Positions 14,270-22,506 of a DNA stretch of 64,000 nucleotides are shown one piece after another. Source of the DNA: an uncultured Bacilli bacterium (lineage in GTDB: Bacteria > Bacillota_I > Bacilli_A > RF39 > UBA660). Every line of letters starts with the position of its first letter. Within the stretch, counting starts at the first letter, position 1. The position numbers were made by a program, and so were the translations under genes. The notes beneath the pieces were generated by a model. It saw nothing but the letters and a program-made list of their open reading frames with translations. It was not told where the DNA came from and did not search any database. The stretch lies in assembly GCA_934097085.1 (NCBI GenBank), contig CAKONK010000004.1, positions 1,907 to 65,906 on the forward strand, given 5' to 3'.

Positions 14270-16126
14270 ATGAATAGAAGTAAAATAACAAAATCGTTAG
14301 CGGTGTTCGCCTCAGTAATATTGATAATCATTATAGGCGTGGCATCATTTGCATATTTTGGAACATTTAGTGTAAATTTAAATAATAATGTAGCAGTAAA
14401 TATAAATTCATCTAGTCCAGGAAATTCAACATTTATCGCAAATGCAACTCAGTTAAATTTAGTAGTCCCAGCGGCAGATATGAGTTTTACTCAGGCAAAT
14501 AATACAGTAGCTGCAAAAGAAGATACAGCATATTTAGATGTAACACTTACAGGTTCACCAAATTTACTTACAACATGTACATATGATATAGTTTATGAAT
14601 ATAATTCGGGAAGTAATGTATATGGACAGGGTACAACAACAAAAACAAGTGGAGCAGATAAAGAAATAACAATAGAAGTAAATGGAATGAATGGAAATAA
14701 TCATTTTGCAGAAGAAACAAATTTTGATTATGCTAATATTCAAAGTTATTATGATAGTACAAATAAATATTATAAGCTAGTTGAAAATGCCACAATAAAA
14801 AGTTTGGGAACAGAACAATCAGTAAGATGGAAAATAATAGGAAGGTATTATAATTTAGATGTAAGTCAAGCACAATTAAGTGGAAAAAACTTTACTGGTA
14901 AAATATATGCAATAAGTAAAGGATGTTCCTCAGAAGATGGTACAACTGTTAAAAAAGGTTATGAAACAATTGTGGCAAATAATGGTGGCTCAGCAAGTAT
15001 GACAACTCTTACATCAACAGATTTTGCAACGGTTACTACAGAAAATGACAAAGGAATGTATAAAGCAACAGATGACTTAGGAACATCATATTATTTTAGA
15101 GGAGCAGTAGATAATAATTGGGTAAAATATGGTAAAGAAACTGCATGTACTTTTAATGGGTCGAAAGTAGTATATGTAGATTCAAAATTTAATTTTAGAA
15201 ATGTAAAAGATGAAGAAGAATGTGTATCCACAACTTTATGCAGTGCTATGGGTGCATATGCAGTAGGATTAAGTGATGATATGTGTACTTCTGCAGGGGG
15301 AGTACCAATAGGTAAAAAAGGTACATATTCTACCCAGGATATGTATTGGCGAATAATAAGAATCAATGGCGATAATTCAATAAGAATGATATATACAGGA
15401 AACGATGCACCAAGTGCTTCAACAAGTGTAATAATGACGGGTTATAAAACTGTGAGTAGTATTAATAGATTTAATACAAATTATGATAGTGCAGAATATG
15501 TAGGATATATGTATACGATAGGAGAGCAACATGGAACAGGAAAAGATAGTACAATAAAAACAGCATTGGATGATTGGTATGCAAATCATACAGATTTAAA
15601 TAAAACTGGAACAAAAATAACAGATCAAATATATTGTAATGATAGAACAGCATCAACTTCAGATGCAGAATATTCAACAACAAATTACACAACACTAACA
15701 AGTTGGAATTCAACTGGAACTACTTATTATTATGGAGCATATGGAAGAATAGCTAAAGATAATAATCCAATGTTAACCTGTGCAGTGGATAGTGATAGAT
15801 TTACAGTTAATAAAACAAATGGTAAAGGAAATAGTGCATTAACATATCCTGTAGGTTTGATAACAATAGATGAGTTGGAAATGGCAGGAAACAATTGGAG
15901 TGAAAGCAACACGAGCTATTATTTACATACTGGAGCTAACTATTGGGCGGGCTCCCCTTATGGATTCGATAGTAATGGTGCTTATGAGTTCCGTGTGGCT
16001 TATGATGGCATTTTGAGCGACTATTTTGTCGATTACAATTTTGGCGTGCGTGGTGTAGTTTCTCTATCCTCTGATGCTAAGTTACTTGGCAGTGGTACAT
16101 ATGATGATGTGTATGTAGTAAGTTAA
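14270..16126 (+). CDS. DGR target (variable) protein: N-terminal TM anchor, large ectodomain, C-terminal C-type-lectin/DUF1566-like variable region
   Basis: 618 aa; C-terminal 40 aa (YWAGSP...GVRGV) contains the VR matching the downstream TR; higher GC than surroundings. Confidence 0.8.
   Translation: MNRSKITKSLAVFASVILIIIIGVASFAYFGTFSVNLNNNVAVNINSSSPGNSTFIANATQLNLVVPAADMSFTQANNTVAAKEDTAYLDVTLTGSPNLLTTCTYDIVYEYNSGSNVYGQGTTTKTSGADKEITIEVNGMNGNNHFAEETNFDYANIQSYYDSTNKYYKLVENATIKSLGTEQSVRWKIIGRYYNLDVSQAQLSGKNFTGKIYAISKGCSSEDGTTVKKGYETIVANNGGSASMTTLTSTDFATVTTENDKGMYKATDDLGTSYYFRGAVDNNWVKYGKETACTFNGSKVVYVDSKFNFRNVKDEEECVSTTLCSAMGAYAVGLSDDMCTSAGGVPIGKKGTYSTQDMYWRIIRINGDNSIRMIYTGNDAPSASTSVIMTGYKTVSSINRFNTNYDSAEYVGYMYTIGEQHGTGKDSTIKTALDDWYANHTDLNKTGTKITDQIYCNDRTASTSDAEYSTTNYTTLTSWNSTGTTYYYGAYGRIAKDNNPMLTCAVDSDRFTVNKTNGKGNSALTYPVGLITIDELEMAGNNWSESNTSYYLHTGANYWAGSPYGFDSNGAYEFRVAYDGILSDYFVDYNFGVRGVVSLSSDAKLLGSGTYDDVYVVS
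15943..16057 (+). repeat. DGR variable repeat (VR)
   Basis: 115-bp match to TR (17038..17152); 21 differences, all at TR adenines; 3' GC-rich ggcgtgcgtggtgta identical in both. Confidence 0.85.
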
Positions 16127-16164
16127 GCTAGAAAGAAGGACTACTTCTCTGAGAAAAGAAAACA

Positions 16165-16183
16165 GCACAATCCTCGATTGTGC
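16165..16183 (+). promoter_or_regulatory. GC-rich perfect hairpin downstream of VR (DGR homing-associated stem-loop candidate)
   Basis: gcacaatc-ctc-gattgtgc, 8-bp perfect stem, about 110 bp after VR 3' end. Confidence 0.5.
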
Positions 16184-16247
16184 GTCGGGCGAAAAATAAA
16201 ACTTAGTGTGGTTGTAGTGTTGAAAAAGTAAAACATACTAAAGTTGT

Positions 16248-16266
16248 ACGCCCCTTTATGGGGCGT
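16248..16266 (+). promoter_or_regulatory. second GC-rich hairpin between target gene and Avd
   Basis: acgcccc-tttat-ggggcgt, 7-bp perfect stem. Confidence 0.45.
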
Positions 16267-16295
16267 ATATTCCACGAAGTGGCAGAAAGGAAAGT

Positions 16296-16637
16296 ATGCA
16301 GTCATTTAAATTAATTAATAAAGCAAATGAATTATATGATTATTCATTTACTTATATTTTAAATAAAATGCCAGGTAAGGCTAAGACTTTTAGGATTGCT
16401 TTGGAAAGTGAATTATATGAGTTAATACATAATATCTATAGAGCAAATATAAATTATGAAAGTGAAAAAATAAGAAGTAAATATCAAAAAGAAGCCTTAG
16501 TGAATTTAAGTACACTTGATTTAATAATAGGTCTTGTGGGAAAGCATAAATACATTAAAATGAAAAGAGTACATGGGTTTTTAGGAATACTTAATGATAC
16601 TAAAAAAATGATGTATGGTTGGATTAAAGAAAAATGA
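16296..16637 (+). CDS. avd: DGR accessory variability determinant (Avd), four-helix-bundle family
   Basis: 113 aa basic protein; MPGKAKTFRIALESELYELIHNIYRAN fits the Avd/four-helix-bundle signature; sits between VR and TR. Confidence 0.65.
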   Translation: MQSFKLINKANELYDYSFTYILNKMPGKAKTFRIALESELYELIHNIYRANINYESEKIRSKYQKEALVNLSTLDLIIGLVGKHKYIKMKRVHGFLGILNDTKKMMYGWIKEK

Positions 16638-16933
16638 ATGATGCACTTTCTAAAATATACGATGATTTGAATGAACTTGTAATGAGAAAAATTCCTCATG
16701 ATAAAGAATTATTAAGTACAAGAATTATTAAAGAACATACTAAGATATGCGAATACACTTTTAATATAATAAATTCTAATAAGGATAAAAATTATATGTT
16801 AGAATTTAAAGTTAGTGTGAAATATATATTATTTGTTCTTGAATACTTTGTTAGTAAAAAAATTATTAATGAAGAAGTTTATAAAACTTTTGAAAAAGAA
16901 TACAAAAATTTATATTTTTTAGTAAACCCTTAA
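16634..16933 (+). CDS. second Avd-like four-helix-bundle protein (paralog?)
   Basis: 99 aa; ATGA-overlapped with avd; IPHDKELLSTRIIKEHTKICEYTFNIIN resembles the same family motif. Confidence 0.4.
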   Translation: MNDALSKIYDDLNELVMRKIPHDKELLSTRIIKEHTKICEYTFNIINSNKDKNYMLEFKVSVKYILFVLEYFVSKKIINEEVYKTFEKEYKNLYFLVNP

Positions 16934-17037
16934 TTTTCTAATTAAGGTAGACATATTATTTTTGGGATTTATGATAATGTGTCTACCATAGTTAAAAAGC
17001 TTTGGGAAGTAAATATTGCTGATAGGGATATGCTACT

Positions 17038-17152
17038 TTGGGCGGGCTCCCCTAATGAATTCAATAGTAATAATGCTAATGAGTTCAATGTGAATAATGA
17101 TGGCAATTTGAACAACAATAATGTCAATAACAATAATGGCGTGCGTGGTGTA
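17038..17152 (+). repeat. DGR template repeat (TR)
   Basis: Asn-codon (AAY)-rich; 16 AAY codons; counterpart of VR; the listed ORF 16979..17215 is an artefact of the TR. Confidence 0.85.
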
Positions 17153-17362
17153 TTTTCCTTACAAAATGAGTATTATTACACAAAGTATTTACTTTATGAA
17201 TGTAATTACTCTTAGACAAATTATGGATAGGAAACAAGCATATTCCTTGGCATTATGCCTAAAATGAAAGTGATGAAGAGAATAGTGTTTATTATATAAT
17301 CGCTTCCTAGTAATACTTTTAATAGCTGTCAGCAATATTTATAAAATTAATGAAAGGAAGGG

Positions 17363-18703
17363 ATGTTTGTAACTGAATTTAATATTGATGAGATATTTAG
17401 TTATGAGAGTGTTGTGTGGGCTTATCATAATGTATGTAAAAATTGTCGGTCATCAATAAAAAAAACTAAGTTTACTTATTTTGCAAATTCTAATATATTT
17501 GATATTTATAATAAATTAAGGGATTTAAGTTATAAATTTTCAAAATATACAATCTTTATAATAAAAGATCCAAAATATAGAGTAATTATGAGCGATACAA
17601 TATATGATAAAATAGTTAACTATTTAGTGGCATATAAAGTGTTACTTCCTGTTTTATCACCAACATTAATTGAACAAAATGTTGCAACTAGGAAAGGAAA
17701 GGGTGCTAGTAAAGCTTACTATTTTTTTGAAAAATATGCAAATAAGTTAAAAGAAAATGGAAGTGTTTATGTTTTAAAAATAGATATAAAAAAATATTTT
17801 TATAATATAAATCATTCAGTGTTATTAAAAATGCTGAAAAAATATATAAGTAGTAGTATGTTAAGTAATTTTATTGTAAATATAATTAATCAGACAAATA
17901 ATGATTATGTAAATAATAATATTAATTATTTAAAAAACAAAATAATACAAGATTTAAATTATAAAAGTATTTCTTTAAAAGAAAAAGAAGAATTAATAAA
18001 AAAAATATATGAAATACCATTATATGATAATGGAAAAGGGCTTTCAATTGGAAATGTTTGTTCTCAAATATTAGCGGTATTCTATTTAAATGAATTCGAT
18101 CATTATATGAAAGAAAAAATTAAATGTAGATGTTATTTAAGATACATGGATGATATAGTAATTTTAAGTAATAGTAAATCATTTTTAAAAGATGTATTTT
18201 ATTTAGCAAATGATAAATTAAAGGAATATAAACTAACTATTAATCCAAAAAGTAACATATATAAATTAAATAATTCTTTTACCTTTTTAGGAAGAACTTA
18301 CTATTTAAAAAATAATATACTTTTATATAGATGCAGAAGCACTACATATAAAAGTATAATGAAAAAATTAAATTATTTAAGAAATAATGATTTCAAAAGT
18401 TATTATTTGAGTAAAATAAGTTACAAAGGTTATTTAAATAAAAATATATATTCTTTAAAAGAAGAGTTCGATTTTTTAAGTAATAAATATAATAATGTAA
18501 TAGTTAAAGATTTTATATATGAAGTTGGGTATGTTATTAGAAGTAATGTTAGTGATGATGTTATTAATGAGGTTTTAGATAATATTGGGATAAGTGTTAT
18601 AAATATTTTTAATATTAAAAGATTTATTAAATATTTTGAATCAAATAATATAAAATATATATATTTAGAAAAAACAAAAATTGTTTTTAAGTATGATTGC
18701 TAG
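17363..18703 (+). CDS. DGR reverse transcriptase
   Basis: 446 aa; motif 4 IGNVCSQ (DGR-specific I/LGxxxSQ) and motif 5 YMDD. Confidence 0.85.
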   Translation: MFVTEFNIDEIFSYESVVWAYHNVCKNCRSSIKKTKFTYFANSNIFDIYNKLRDLSYKFSKYTIFIIKDPKYRVIMSDTIYDKIVNYLVAYKVLLPVLSPTLIEQNVATRKGKGASKAYYFFEKYANKLKENGSVYVLKIDIKKYFYNINHSVLLKMLKKYISSSMLSNFIVNIINQTNNDYVNNNINYLKNKIIQDLNYKSISLKEKEELIKKIYEIPLYDNGKGLSIGNVCSQILAVFYLNEFDHYMKEKIKCRCYLRYMDDIVILSNSKSFLKDVFYLANDKLKEYKLTINPKSNIYKLNNSFTFLGRTYYLKNNILLYRCRSTTYKSIMKKLNYLRNNDFKSYYLSKISYKGYLNKNIYSLKEEFDFLSNKYNNVIVKDFIYEVGYVIRSNVSDDVINEVLDNIGISVINIFNIKRFIKYFESNNIKYIYLEKTKIVFKYDC

Positions 18704-18833
18704 GATAAAGCCTAGCTTTTATTATGTAAATGATTTTACATATTTATATGTGTTAATTAATGTCAAATAAATTATAAAAAAAGTGTCAAAAATGTGTAAA
18801 ATTTTAATTTTTTTTAAGAAATTTATTAAAAAA

Positions 18834-18985: not shown

Positions 18986-19330
18986 ATGAACGAATTAGAA
19001 AAAATTAATGAAACTATTTTTGAAAGTATTAAACATGTAGATGATGAAGGTAATGAATATTGGTATGTAAGGGAATTACAATATATTCTAGGGTATAATC
19101 AGTGGCGAAGTATAAATGATTTAATTAAAAGAGCAAAAGTTGCTTGTAAATAAAGCGATAATAATATTCATGACCATTTTGCGGTACAACGCAAAATGGT
19201 TGATATAGGTTCAAAGACACAAAGAGAAGTTCTTGATTATAAACTATCCAGATATGCTTGTTATTTAATTGCTTAAAATGGTGATAGTAGGAAAAAAGTT
19301 TAAAAGAACTAAAAAAAGAAAATAACAATT
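18986..19330 (+). pseudogene. dinD/Bro-N family gene fragment (stop and frameshift), fused to the conserved 3' junction
   Basis: MNELEKINETIFESIKHVDDEGNEYWYVRELQYILGYNQWRS...VACK then stop; continues out of frame ...KLSRYACYLIA. Confidence 0.6.
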
Positions 19331-19363
19331 TAATTATAAAAAATAGAAATGGAGGTAACTAAA

Positions 19364-20197
19364 ATGAATGAATTAGAAAATATTAATGAAACACTATTTG
19401 AAAGTATTAGACATGTAGATGATGAAGGTAATGAATATTGGTATGCAAGGGAACTACAAAAGGTATTACAATACAACAAATGGGAAAACTTTAAAAAAGT
19501 AATTTTAAAGGCAAAATTGTCCTGTAATGCAAGTAGTTGTGAAATTTCAGAACAGTTTCTTGATATCAGGAAACCGATAATAGGTGGTAATGGAAATGTT
19601 CAATATGTATGTGATTATAAACTATCTAGATATGCTTGTTATCTTATTGCTCAAAATGGTGATAGTAGAAAGAAAGTTATAGCTCTTGCTCAAACATATT
19701 TTGCTATTCAAACTAGGAAACAAGAATTATTAGAGAAAGAATATAATAGTTTAACTGAAGATGAAAAAAGATTCTATCAAAGAGATCTAACTAAAAAAGG
19801 AAATTATTCCTTAAATCAAACTGCTAAAAAGGCTGGAGTAAAGAACTTTGATAAATTTCATAATGCTGGGTATAAAGGTTTATATAATGGAGAAACAGCA
19901 AACGATATTGCTAAAAGAAAGGGATTACGGTATAGGGAGGATGTTTTAGATAATATGGGAAGTGATGAACTGATAGCTAATTTATTTAGAATATCTCAAA
20001 CTAATCAAAGACTTAATAATGATAATATTCAAGGTGAAAAAGCAGCTTGCTTAACACATAATAAAATTGGAAAAATTGTTAGAAAAGCTATAAAAGAGGC
20101 TGGTGGTACAATGCCTGAGGATTTACCAACACCAGATAAAAGTTTAAAAGAACTAAAAAAAGAAAATAATAATCTAATAATTAAAAATAGAAAGTGA
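19364..20197 (+). CDS. DNA-damage-inducible protein D (DinD)-like, Bro-N domain protein, copy 1
   Basis: Matches DinD as I recall it (HLSRYACYL..QNGD, GQTYFAIQTR, HMGS.ELAANLFR.TQT, GGTMPE.LPTP); SD ggaggt before ATG 19364. Confidence 0.7.
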   Translation: MNELENINETLFESIRHVDDEGNEYWYARELQKVLQYNKWENFKKVILKAKLSCNASSCEISEQFLDIRKPIIGGNGNVQYVCDYKLSRYACYLIAQNGDSRKKVIALAQTYFAIQTRKQELLEKEYNSLTEDEKRFYQRDLTKKGNYSLNQTAKKAGVKNFDKFHNAGYKGLYNGETANDIAKRKGLRYREDVLDNMGSDELIANLFRISQTNQRLNNDNIQGEKAACLTHNKIGKIVRKAIKEAGGTMPEDLPTPDKSLKELKKENNNLIIKNRK

Positions 20198-20205
20198 GGT
20201 AAAAA

Positions 20206-20560
20206 ATGAACGAATTAGAAAAAATAAATGATACTATATTTGAAAGTATTATACATGTAGATGATGAAGGTAATGAATATTGGTATGCAAGAGAACTGCA
20301 ATATATTTTAGGGTATAATCAGTGGCGAAGTATAAATGATTTAATTAAAAGAGCTAAAGTTGCTTGTAAAGGAAGTGAAAATAATGTTGATTATCATTTT
20401 GCGGTCTACCGCAAAATGATAAATATTGCAAAGGGTGCAACTAGAAATGTGATATAAACTATCCAGATATGCTTGTTATTTAATTGCTTAAAATGGTGAT
20501 AGTAGGAAAAAAGTTTAAAAGAACTAAAAAAAGAAAATAACAATTTAATTATAAAAAATA
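20206..20560 (+). pseudogene. dinD/Bro-N family gene fragment, near-duplicate of 18986..19330
   Basis: 83-aa N-terminal ORF then frame break; same junction sequence. Confidence 0.6.
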
Positions 20561-20578
20561 GAAATGGAGGTAACTAAA

Positions 20579-21418
20579 ATGAATGAATTAGAAAATATTA
20601 ATGAAACACTATTTGAAAGTATTAGACATGTAGATGATGAAGGTAATGAATATTGGTATGCAAGGGAACTACAAAAGGTATTACAATACAACAAATGGGA
20701 AAACTTTAAAAAAGTAATTTTAAAGGCAAAATTGTCCTGTAATGCAAGTAGTTGTGAAATTTCAGAACAGTTTCTTGATATCAGGAAACCGATAATAGGT
20801 GGTAATGGAAATGTTCAATATGTATGTGATTATAAACTATCTAGATATGCTTGTTATCTTATTGCTCAAAATGGTGATAGTAGAAAGAAAGTTATAGCTC
20901 TTGCTCAAACATATTTTGCTATTCAAACTAGGAAACAAGAATTATTAGAGAAAGAATATAATAGTTTAACTGAAGATGAAAAAAGAATATATCAAAGAAA
21001 TCAAGCAAGAAAAGGAAATTATAATTTAAATAAGACAGCTGTTAATAGTGGAGTAAAAGATTTAGCAAGATTTCATAATGCTGGTTATAAAGGCTTATAT
21101 AATGGTGAAACCGCTGATGATATTTTTAAAAGAAAAAAATTAAGATATAGGGAAGATATTTTAGATAATATGGGAAGTGAAGAACTTGCAGCGAATTTAT
21201 TTAGAATAACTCAAACTGAATCTAAATTAAAAAAAGATAATGTAAGTGGTGAAGGTAATGCAATTGATACTCATTATGAGGTTGGTAAAGAAGTTCGTAA
21301 TACAATAGAAAGATTAGGCGGTACTATGCCTGAGGATTTACCAACACCAGATAAAAGTTTAAAAGAAATTGAAAAAGAAAACAATTTAATTATAAAAAAT
21401 AGAAATGGAGGTAACTAA
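20579..21418 (+). CDS. DinD-like Bro-N domain protein, copy 2
   Basis: First ~140 codons DNA-identical to copy 1 across the inspected stretches, C-terminal half diverged. Confidence 0.7.
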   Translation: MNELENINETLFESIRHVDDEGNEYWYARELQKVLQYNKWENFKKVILKAKLSCNASSCEISEQFLDIRKPIIGGNGNVQYVCDYKLSRYACYLIAQNGDSRKKVIALAQTYFAIQTRKQELLEKEYNSLTEDEKRIYQRNQARKGNYNLNKTAVNSGVKDLARFHNAGYKGLYNGETADDIFKRKKLRYREDILDNMGSEELAANLFRITQTESKLKKDNVSGEGNAIDTHYEVGKEVRNTIERLGGTMPEDLPTPDKSLKEIEKENNLIIKNRNGGN

Positions 21419-21419
21419 A

Positions 21420-22247
21420 ATGAATGAATTAGAAAATATTAATGAAACTATATTTGAAAGTATTATACATGTAGATGATGAAGGTAATGAATATTGGTAT
21501 GCAAGGGAACTTCAACAAATACTCGGTTATAAAGAATGGAGGTATTTTTCTGCAGTCATAGAAAAAGCACAAATTGCTTGTTCTCAAAGCAATAACAATG
21601 TTAATTCCCATTTTGGTGTAAACACCAAAATCGTATCTGCTGGTAAAGCTACAAAACCAATAATTGACTATAGATTAAGTAGATATGCCTGCTACTTAAT
21701 TGTCCAAAATGCAAACCCTAAATATGAAGCCGTATCTTTAGGACAGACATATTTTGCTGTACAAACGAGAAAAATGGAATTAACTGAAGAAGAATATGGC
21801 AGATTAACAGAAGATGAAAAAAGACTATATAGGAGAAGGCAAACAAGAGACGGCAATAAAATTTTATATAAAATTGCTAAAGAAAAAGGAGTTAAAAACT
21901 TTGATAAGTTTACTAATGCTGGGTATAAAGGATTATATAATGGAGAAACAGCACACGATATTGCAAAACGAAAAGGTTTAAGATATCGAGAAGATATACT
22001 AGATAATATGGGTAGTGTTGAATTTGGTGCTAATATATTTAGAATAACTCAAACAGAAGCATTACTTGAAAAACAAGAAGAGCCAAATGAAATAATTGCC
22101 ACAAATACTCACTACAAAGTGGGAAAAACAGTTAGAAAAGCAATTGAAGATTTAGGCGGTACAATGCCAGAAGATTTACCAACACCAGATAAAAGTTTAA
22201 AAGAATTAGAGAAAGAAAATAAAAATTTAATAATTAAAAATTATTAA
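21420..22247 (+). CDS. DinD-like Bro-N domain protein, copy 3 (diverged throughout)
   Basis: Same family motifs; start overlaps end of copy 2 via the conserved junction. Confidence 0.7.
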   Translation: MNELENINETIFESIIHVDDEGNEYWYARELQQILGYKEWRYFSAVIEKAQIACSQSNNNVNSHFGVNTKIVSAGKATKPIIDYRLSRYACYLIVQNANPKYEAVSLGQTYFAVQTRKMELTEEEYGRLTEDEKRLYRRRQTRDGNKILYKIAKEKGVKNFDKFTNAGYKGLYNGETAHDIAKRKGLRYREDILDNMGSVEFGANIFRITQTEALLEKQEEPNEIIATNTHYKVGKTVRKAIEDLGGTMPEDLPTPDKSLKELEKENKNLIIKNY

Positions 22248-22506
22248 TGAAATGGTATTTAAAGGGATTAAACATATTGATGAGAATGGAAATGAATATT
22301 GATATGCAAGAGAATTGCAAAATGTGAAAAGGTGGAATAAATTTTGTAATGCACTAGAAAGTGCACAAATTGCCTGTGGTGTTAGCAATAATAATGTGTC
22401 AGACCATTTTTCCCACTTGGGAAAAATGGTCAATATTGGCTCTAATACTTTTAAAAATATAGTTGATTACAAACTGTCGAGATATGCATATCACATAATG
22501 TTTTAA
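22248..22506 (+). pseudogene. dinD/Bro-N family terminal fragment
   Basis: ENGNEY then stop then YARELQ...DYKLSRYAYHIMF; truncated, ends the array. Confidence 0.5.

Follow-up and report, generated by a model that had tools for sequence, protein, structure and literature searches.

The window analyzed here is a stretch of 64,000 nucleotides from contig CAKONK010000004.1 (assembly GCA_934097085.1) of an uncultured Bacilli bacterium, with a G+C content of ~25%. It carries a cassette that is very probably a chromosomal diversity-generating retroelement (DGR), all parts of which lie on the + strand in the order target gene, avd, orf99, template repeat (TR) and reverse transcriptase (RT) gene. The target (variable protein) gene (14270..16126) encodes 618 amino acids and contains the variable region (VR, 15943..16057) near its 3′ end; VR covers codons 559-596 of 618, and its end lies 69 nt before the target stop codon. 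Downstream are avd (accessory variability determinant; 16296..16637, 113 amino acids, isoelectric point (pI) 9.7) and orf99 (16634..16933, 99 amino acids, pI 7.8), a second Avd-like gene whose start overlaps the avd stop codon (ATGA). A non-coding stretch of 429 nt (16934-17362) carries TR (17038..17152) and leads to the RT gene (17363..18703, 446 amino acids, pI 9.5). The unit is closed by a hairpin with a T-run (18699..18716), which resembles a terminator and lies where the RT gene ends. Rfam identified no family within the cassette and three tRNAs elsewhere in the window.

VR and TR differ at 21 of 115 bp in an ungapped comparison (offset 1095), with which a MAFFT alignment agrees. All 21 mismatches are located at adenines of TR (A to T, 10; A to G, 9; A to C, 2), and none at C, G or T. 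As TR contains 40 adenines in 115 nt, the hypergeometric probability that 21 of 21 differences fall on A by chance is P = 2.5e-12. The original prediction, which had counted 21 mismatches by eye and placed every one at a TR adenine, is upheld when the ungapped alignment is tabulated by TR base. Its claim that the flanks are identical is also borne out by the alignment: the 16 nt at the 5′ end (TTGGGCGGGCTCCCCT) and the GC-rich 15 nt at the 3′ end (GGCGTGCGTGGTGTA) are the same in both repeats. The sharp borders that it described are found on the 5′ side, where homology stops abruptly at 15942/17037 (TA beside VR, CT beside TR), and not on the 3′ side, where a partial likeness persists and fades over ~15 nt (VR, GTAGTTTCTCTATCC; TR, GTATTTTCCTTACAA). 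In the frame of the target gene, TR contains 17 AAY codons instead of the 16 counted earlier; the statement that the changes fall mostly in such codons is correct, as 15 of the 17 are altered in VR, together with one GAA to GGA change. The altered adenines occupy the first codon position in 13 cases, the second in 8 and the third in none, and a stop codon cannot arise from any A-substitution in TR. The rewritable codons (17 AAY and 5 other A-containing codons) span residues 564-596 and give a theoretical repertoire of up to ~3e22 proteins. No third copy of the repeat is present in the window when both strands are scanned with adenines as wildcards. The 3′ homing boundary, which resembles the initiation of mutagenic homing (IMH) element, lies at 16043..16072 and consists of GGCGTGCGTGGTGTA, as in TR, and the next 15 nt, GTTTCTCTATCCTCT, compared with TTTTCCTTACAAAAT in the TR flank. 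The VR-side and TR-side 3′ flanks are each kept across related cassettes, and by likeness to phage BPP-1 the boundary may act as an IMH/IMH*-like pair.

The product of the RT gene matches RVT_1 (E = 7.8e-20) and contains the motifs SIGNVCSQ and YMDD. The [LIV]GxxxSQ motif defines the DGR clade of RTs. The best solved relative in a PDB search is 8ub7_A (E = 1e-20); according to the fold-search output, 8ub7 is the Bordetella phage DGR ribonucleoprotein (RNP), with Avd as chain B. The avd product matches hidden Markov models (HMMs) for Avd, namely PF22296 bAvd (E = 3e-7) and NF033474 (DivGenRetAVD; E = 3.6e-9), and homologues of avd in related cassettes attain the bAvd cut-off. A DGR survey reports Avd in ~74% of DGRs (PMC5758913). 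The features that characterize DGRs are present together at this locus. TR and VR differ at adenines only (21/21 in the window), a DGR-type RT with intact YxDD and [LIV]GxxxSQ motifs adjoins TR, VR lies at the 3′ end of a coding gene while TR is non-coding and invariant, and the common GC-rich 3′ end is followed by differing flanks at the sequence level; an accessory Avd is also encoded, with HMM scores under the curated cut-offs. The adenine-only pattern, the intact parts and the canonical order therefore identify the system as a chromosomal DGR, to which a probability of about 0.93 is assigned. The original prediction had read the mismatch pattern as the signature of mutagenic homing, and this reading is supported by the target gene with its 3′-terminal VR, Avd, TR and RT, all intact and in the expected order.

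Strain comparisons, which had been proposed together with that reading, were performed by aligning the members of the 90% cluster of the window protein (P0121). P0121 is separated from P0126 by a single difference among the 580 residues outside VR but by 18 differences among the 38 VR residues, and near-identical strain pairs show 1-3 differences in 580 outside VR and 12-18 of 38 inside. There are 21 variable VR columns, each of which is a codon with an A in TR. Each of the 17 AAY positions is among them, and the remaining columns are constant, so that variation is confined to codons with A in TR. In a related locus from MGYG-HGUT-04242 (L011; related loci are numbered with the prefix L), TR is as in the window and VR is different, with 20 of 20 differences at adenines; the same TR is found in L001-L003. 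Pooled over eight related cassettes, 170 substitutions fall at template adenines and 3 elsewhere. Since VR turns over between nearly identical strains, the element appears to have been recently active, rewriting VR on the time-scale of strain divergence.

The non-coding stretch around TR is better conserved than the surrounding proteins, and bases outside TR are almost all unchanged between cassettes whose RTs are ~71% identical as proteins. Its predicted fold beats shuffled controls (z = -4.4), and when a consensus structure is applied to eight sequences, pairing holds in 99% of cells and double changes occur in 10 pairs, above shuffled and slid controls. For a conserved segment just upstream of TR (17009..17037), pairing is predicted with the spacer RNA (17153..17362), which separates TR from RT and is highly conserved and mostly invariant. 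Nucleotides 17009-17023 would form a duplex of 15-16 bp with 17328-17343, and 17024-17034, just upstream of TR, an 11-bp duplex with 17237-17247 of the spacer. The 3′ end of TR (17145-17155) is predicted to pair with 17225-17235 of the spacer, directly beside the 11-bp duplex. The BPP-1 DGR RNA has been described with an upstream/downstream duplex in a study that also predicted distal duplexes of this kind for 207 of the 278 DGRs with avd that it examined (bioRxiv 10.1101/2023.10.23.563531). The arrangement predicted in the window matches the published description of the BPP-1 RNP. Directly after orf99, a long hairpin (16934..16999; arms 16934-16959 and 16974-16999) contains three pairs with compensatory changes. 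A promoter-like TAGACA-16-TATGAT motif (10/12 matches) lies inside this hairpin (window 16948-16975), and for this reason the hairpin could regulate TR transcription, as DNA or RNA, instead of belonging to the DGR RNA. A 78-amino-acid open reading frame (16979-17215) that spans TR has been annotated as a gene at this locus in metagenomes (e.g., L001 8710-8946), most likely an artefact of gene calling on the template repeat.

Two further hairpins are located in the spacer between the target gene and avd. The first, GCACAATC-CTC-GATTGTGC (16165..16183), is kept by a compensatory change from GCAC..GTGC to GCGC..GCGC in L022, L024, L027 and L028. The second, GC-rich TACGCCCC-TTTAT-GGGGCGTA (16247..16267), lies upstream of avd and has a 7-bp stem core (ACGCCCC/GGGGCGT) that is invariant in eight cassettes. 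Both are retained in a decayed copy (L018), at whose locus tblastn finds no avd. A processing site, a regulatory element and a homing element are candidates for the role of these hairpins.

Several observations weigh against this interpretation or narrow it. Both HMM scores of avd fall under the curated cut-offs. No hairpin stands straight after VR, the nearest conserved ones being ~100-190 nt downstream. The long-range helices are invariant or show G-U changes only and are supported mainly by conservation rather than by covariation, and the RNA structure was tested on the sequences from which it was derived; the support for the RNA fold is moderate for these two reasons. The VR of the window recurs in four contigs, which come from no fewer than three samples, as well as in an NCBI genome, and its turnover is therefore not continuous. 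Finally, the evidence comes from assemblies and not from reads. The original prediction had called the element recently or currently active; the strain comparisons favor the first part of this claim, and present-day activity is not demonstrable from assemblies.

The repeated VR would also fit a DGR relic, in which the differences between VR and TR are historical and the element no longer diversifies the target in this strain. The window's own genome shares this VR with the four contigs, and decayed cassettes do occur in related strains. The RT gene is deleted in L025 and L026, leaving a remnant of 58 codons (L025:4300-4900); three consecutive tyrosine recombinase genes occupy the RT position in L023 (L023:4743-7843); and avd is truncated in L021 (L021:3668-3856) and L023. 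In the window, however, the catalytic motifs of RT, avd, orf99, TR and the RNA flanks are all intact, and the contrast of one residue outside VR with 18 inside it between P0121 and P0126 places VR turnover at the scale of strain divergence. A relic is thus an improbable explanation, though the best of the alternatives, and a functional DGR is preferred.

A second alternative is that the cassette resides in a prophage or another mobile element and that, as with BPP-1, diversification acts on a phage receptor-binding protein. Bro-N genes, which are common in phages, are arrayed after the RT gene, and the single DNA match in a phage collection is the RT of a crAss-like phage (70.7% identity over 168 nt). 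The flanks, however, contain no phage structural, integrase or replication genes. The cassette occupies one conserved chromosomal site in many genomes, with a tetratricopeptide repeat (TPR) protein and a sodium:dicarboxylate (SDF) symporter upstream and a Bro-N tandem array downstream; a beta-lactamase-like protein is also encoded among the neighbors, and genes for ABC/FtsX transporters, BipA and a GH25 enzyme lie farther out. Moreover, a membrane anchor is present at the N-terminus of the target, each genome has 4-6 chromosomal paralogues of it, and a scan of IMG/VR gave no relatives. On the strength of the conserved site, the housekeeping neighbors and the result of the IMG/VR scan, the DGR is a cellular one and not a phage one, and a prophage origin is very improbable. 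The Bro-N array itself (window 18986-22500, directly after RT) comprises five or six genes or fragments (55, 282, 83, 284 and 280 amino acids and a remnant); it accompanies the cassette in other genomes and is likewise found after a paralogue of the target that lacks a DGR (L007). The least plausible alternative, an ordinary diverged duplication of a gene fragment without any retroelement, has nothing in its favor beyond the existence of the repeat and is already refuted by the adenine-exclusive mismatch spectrum in the window and in the eight pooled cassettes, by the adjoining RT and avd, and by a TR that stays constant while VR varies.

The cassette would operate as a DGR in the following manner. 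A transcript would cover the stretch immediately 5′ of TR, TR itself and the spacer, or would be longer and extend from avd to the RT gene. RT and Avd, probably together with the orf99 protein, would assemble on the folded TR RNA. RT would then prime from the spacer and copy TR from its GC-rich 3′ end, inserting random nucleotides opposite adenines, and the resulting cDNA would take the place of the existing VR in the target gene. The direction of transfer would be determined by the GC-rich 3′ end common to both repeats and by the flank specific to VR that follows GGCGTGCGTGGTGTA, and the rewritten residues would belong to the probably lectin-like domain at the C-terminus of a surface protein anchored in the membrane. 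In this scheme, cis-priming from the spacer, the roles of the duplexes, Avd and orf99, the homing mechanism and ligand binding by the target are modeled on the BPP-1 paradigm.

The target protein has an N-terminal transmembrane helix (residues ~3-31), a beta-sandwich (residues ~45-225) and a large C-terminal domain (residues ~354-618) that contains VR. The helix (residues 3-31) may serve as a membrane anchor or a signal. No Pfam or NCBIfam entry matches the target, even when its separate domains are searched up to E = 10, and neither a PDB profile search nor a single-sequence search identifies a solved structure by sequence. A confident AlphaFold model built from 45 diverse homologues (pLDDT 89.8) contains a large alpha/beta C-terminal domain with VR on its last five strands. 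The whole model gives marginal matches only in a Foldseek search against PDB. The model of the C-terminal domain is closest to a chain with an enlarged C-type-lectin-like domain, a match for which the tool does not report aligned ranges. The modeled VR-bearing domain would thus adopt an enlarged lectin-like fold, consistent with other DGR targets. Weak matches to Bd1399 and TasA are obtained with the N-terminal sandwich; a camelysin-type N-terminus is found in one distant family member, and the window protein has no such HMM match. The family is large, with more than 6400 matches among 8000 candidates in a 90%-clustered collection and 3818 representatives at 50% clustering. Residues 354-617 form a widespread module that also stands at the end of, or is repeated in, very large proteins.

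Each genome carries 4-6 paralogues of the target that are 46-71% identical to the window protein. All of them retain the VR scaffold and a nearly invariant tail, and the ~70 nt after VR are conserved at the DNA level. The paralogues were considered as trans targets of the TRs read and rejected as current ones, since they show 6-10 or more non-A mismatches to the nearest TR. The Val-Ser-Leu codons straight after the GC-rich end occur in two synonymous versions, GTTTCTCTA and GTGAGTTTA (window 16058-16126; gene ends of L004-L018). Copies beside an intact DGR, plus several copies without one, have GTTTCTCTA, and GTGAGTTTA is found only in copies without a working adjoining DGR (L006, L012, L017 and L025). 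This split could mark a loss or change of target recognition.

The second accessory gene, orf99, stands between avd and TR in every intact cassette read from this lineage and is restricted to 26 protein clusters, all at least 73% identical. Profile searches of Pfam, NCBIfam and PDB detect no relatives of its product, and BLASTP finds no pairwise similarity between orf99 and avd. The model of the orf99 protein folds like Avd in a fold search, and a profile-profile comparison (hhalign) with an Avd alignment of related cassettes is colinear over 77 columns, a weak result with a probability of 24%; these are the sole links between orf99 and Avd. A much-diverged duplicate of avd is the likeliest origin of orf99. 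The RT is also unusual in its length, being ~20-80 amino acids longer than relatives of 40-49% identity (367-429 amino acids). As those relatives have no orf99 and shorter RTs, orf99 and the longer RT are features of the lineage. The C-terminal ~100 residues of the RT (~340-446; window 18380-18703) are conserved in the lineage, cannot be aligned with the shorter RTs of distant relatives and match no family. A tentative and rather unlikely proposal is that two different Avd-type proteins, the basic canonical one and the near-neutral orf99 product, form with the longer RT a mixed or second four-helix-bundle assembly on the DGR RNA. If this were true, the two-Avd assembly would be a variant of the RT-Avd-RNA particle that has not yet been described. 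In the survey of Wu et al. 2018 (PMC5758913), one of 372 DGRs has two avd genes; the window resembles that case in having two Avd-type genes per cassette. The second copy in the window has no detectable pairwise similarity to the first, and its pI of 7.8 is near-neutral and not basic.

Among known systems, the BPP-1 DGR (mtd-avd-TR-brt) is similar in the order of target, avd, TR and RT, in its adenine-only mismatches and in a common GC-rich 3′ end of VR and TR. It also shares the four-helix bundle of Avd, its RT is the closest solved relative of the RT in the window, and its spacer pairs with the 3′ end of TR and with a segment upstream of TR, as predicted in the window. In contrast to BPP-1, whose cassette is carried by a phage and diversifies a tail fiber, the cassette in the window is chromosomal and its target is a membrane-anchored cellular protein. 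The window additionally contains the extra Avd-like gene between avd and TR and an RT of 446 amino acids versus 328, and it lacks the hairpin that stands immediately 3′ of VR in BPP-1. Treponema denticola TvpA and Legionella pneumophila LdtA, which belong to cellular DGRs diversifying surface proteins, are listed among the closest systems. A set of gut DGRs (L031-L047) with RTs 40-49% identical to that of the window shares the family of the target C-terminal domain, the RT clade, avd and the adenine-only mismatches, whereas their order is target, TR, avd and RT, with an MSL gene after TR in some, and orf99 is absent. This additional gene encodes a MutS domain I protein of the MSL accessory class and lies between TR and avd in L038 (4214-4633), L044 (4191-4559) and L047. 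Structural likeness to the target domain is found in the N-terminal domain of the Thomasclavelia ramosa IgA peptidase (PDB 9qa6), with aligned ranges unreported; in contrast to the window target, that enzyme, a metallopeptidase, is not known to undergo diversification, and there is no match at the sequence level. The diversified module may represent a large unannotated lectin-like family that also occurs in the IgA peptidase of an Erysipelotrichales species from the gut. Were this the case, the module could serve gut Bacilli that are wall-less or have small genomes in binding the host or glycans.

The target gene has relatives in assemblies from the human gut that carry the labels Mycoplasma sp. 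CAG:472, uncultured Mycoplasma sp. MGYG-HGUT-04242, uncultured Bacilli and Anaeroplasmataceae. The cassette is an example of a textbook hypermutation system on the chromosome of an uncultured, small-genome gut lineage (‘Mycoplasma sp. CAG:472’-like Bacilli). Full-text searches pairing DGR with RF39, ‘Mycoplasma sp. CAG’ or Tenericutes returned no account of a DGR in this lineage, and term searches of the Wu, Roux and 2024 DGR surveys gave no mention of it; the large gut DGR catalogues probably include this DGR without comment. The type of system is well known, and the findings leave the accepted picture of how DGRs work unchanged. The points of interest are modest, namely the second Avd-like gene, the longer RT, the unannotated lectin-like target domain and the chromosomal location. 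The DGR indicates which protein is under pressure to change, namely a surface protein that is anchored in the membrane and belongs to a family of several paralogues; the variable domain of this protein lacks a Pfam annotation despite thousands of metagenome cluster representatives. The relatives also provide a natural comparison of the DGR mechanism, as they have one avd, avd with a MutS-like gene, or avd with an Avd-like gene, and further natural variants have lost RT or carry tandemly duplicated TR-RNA units. Such duplications are found in L027 (2578-3485) and L028 (4301-5057), in which the unit of hairpin, TR and spacer, ~450 nt per unit, is repeated in tandem, the two units having distinct TRs. 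No target for the second of these is present in the sequence read, and the local VR fits the first TR only, with 19/19 and 26/27 mismatches at adenines, respectively.

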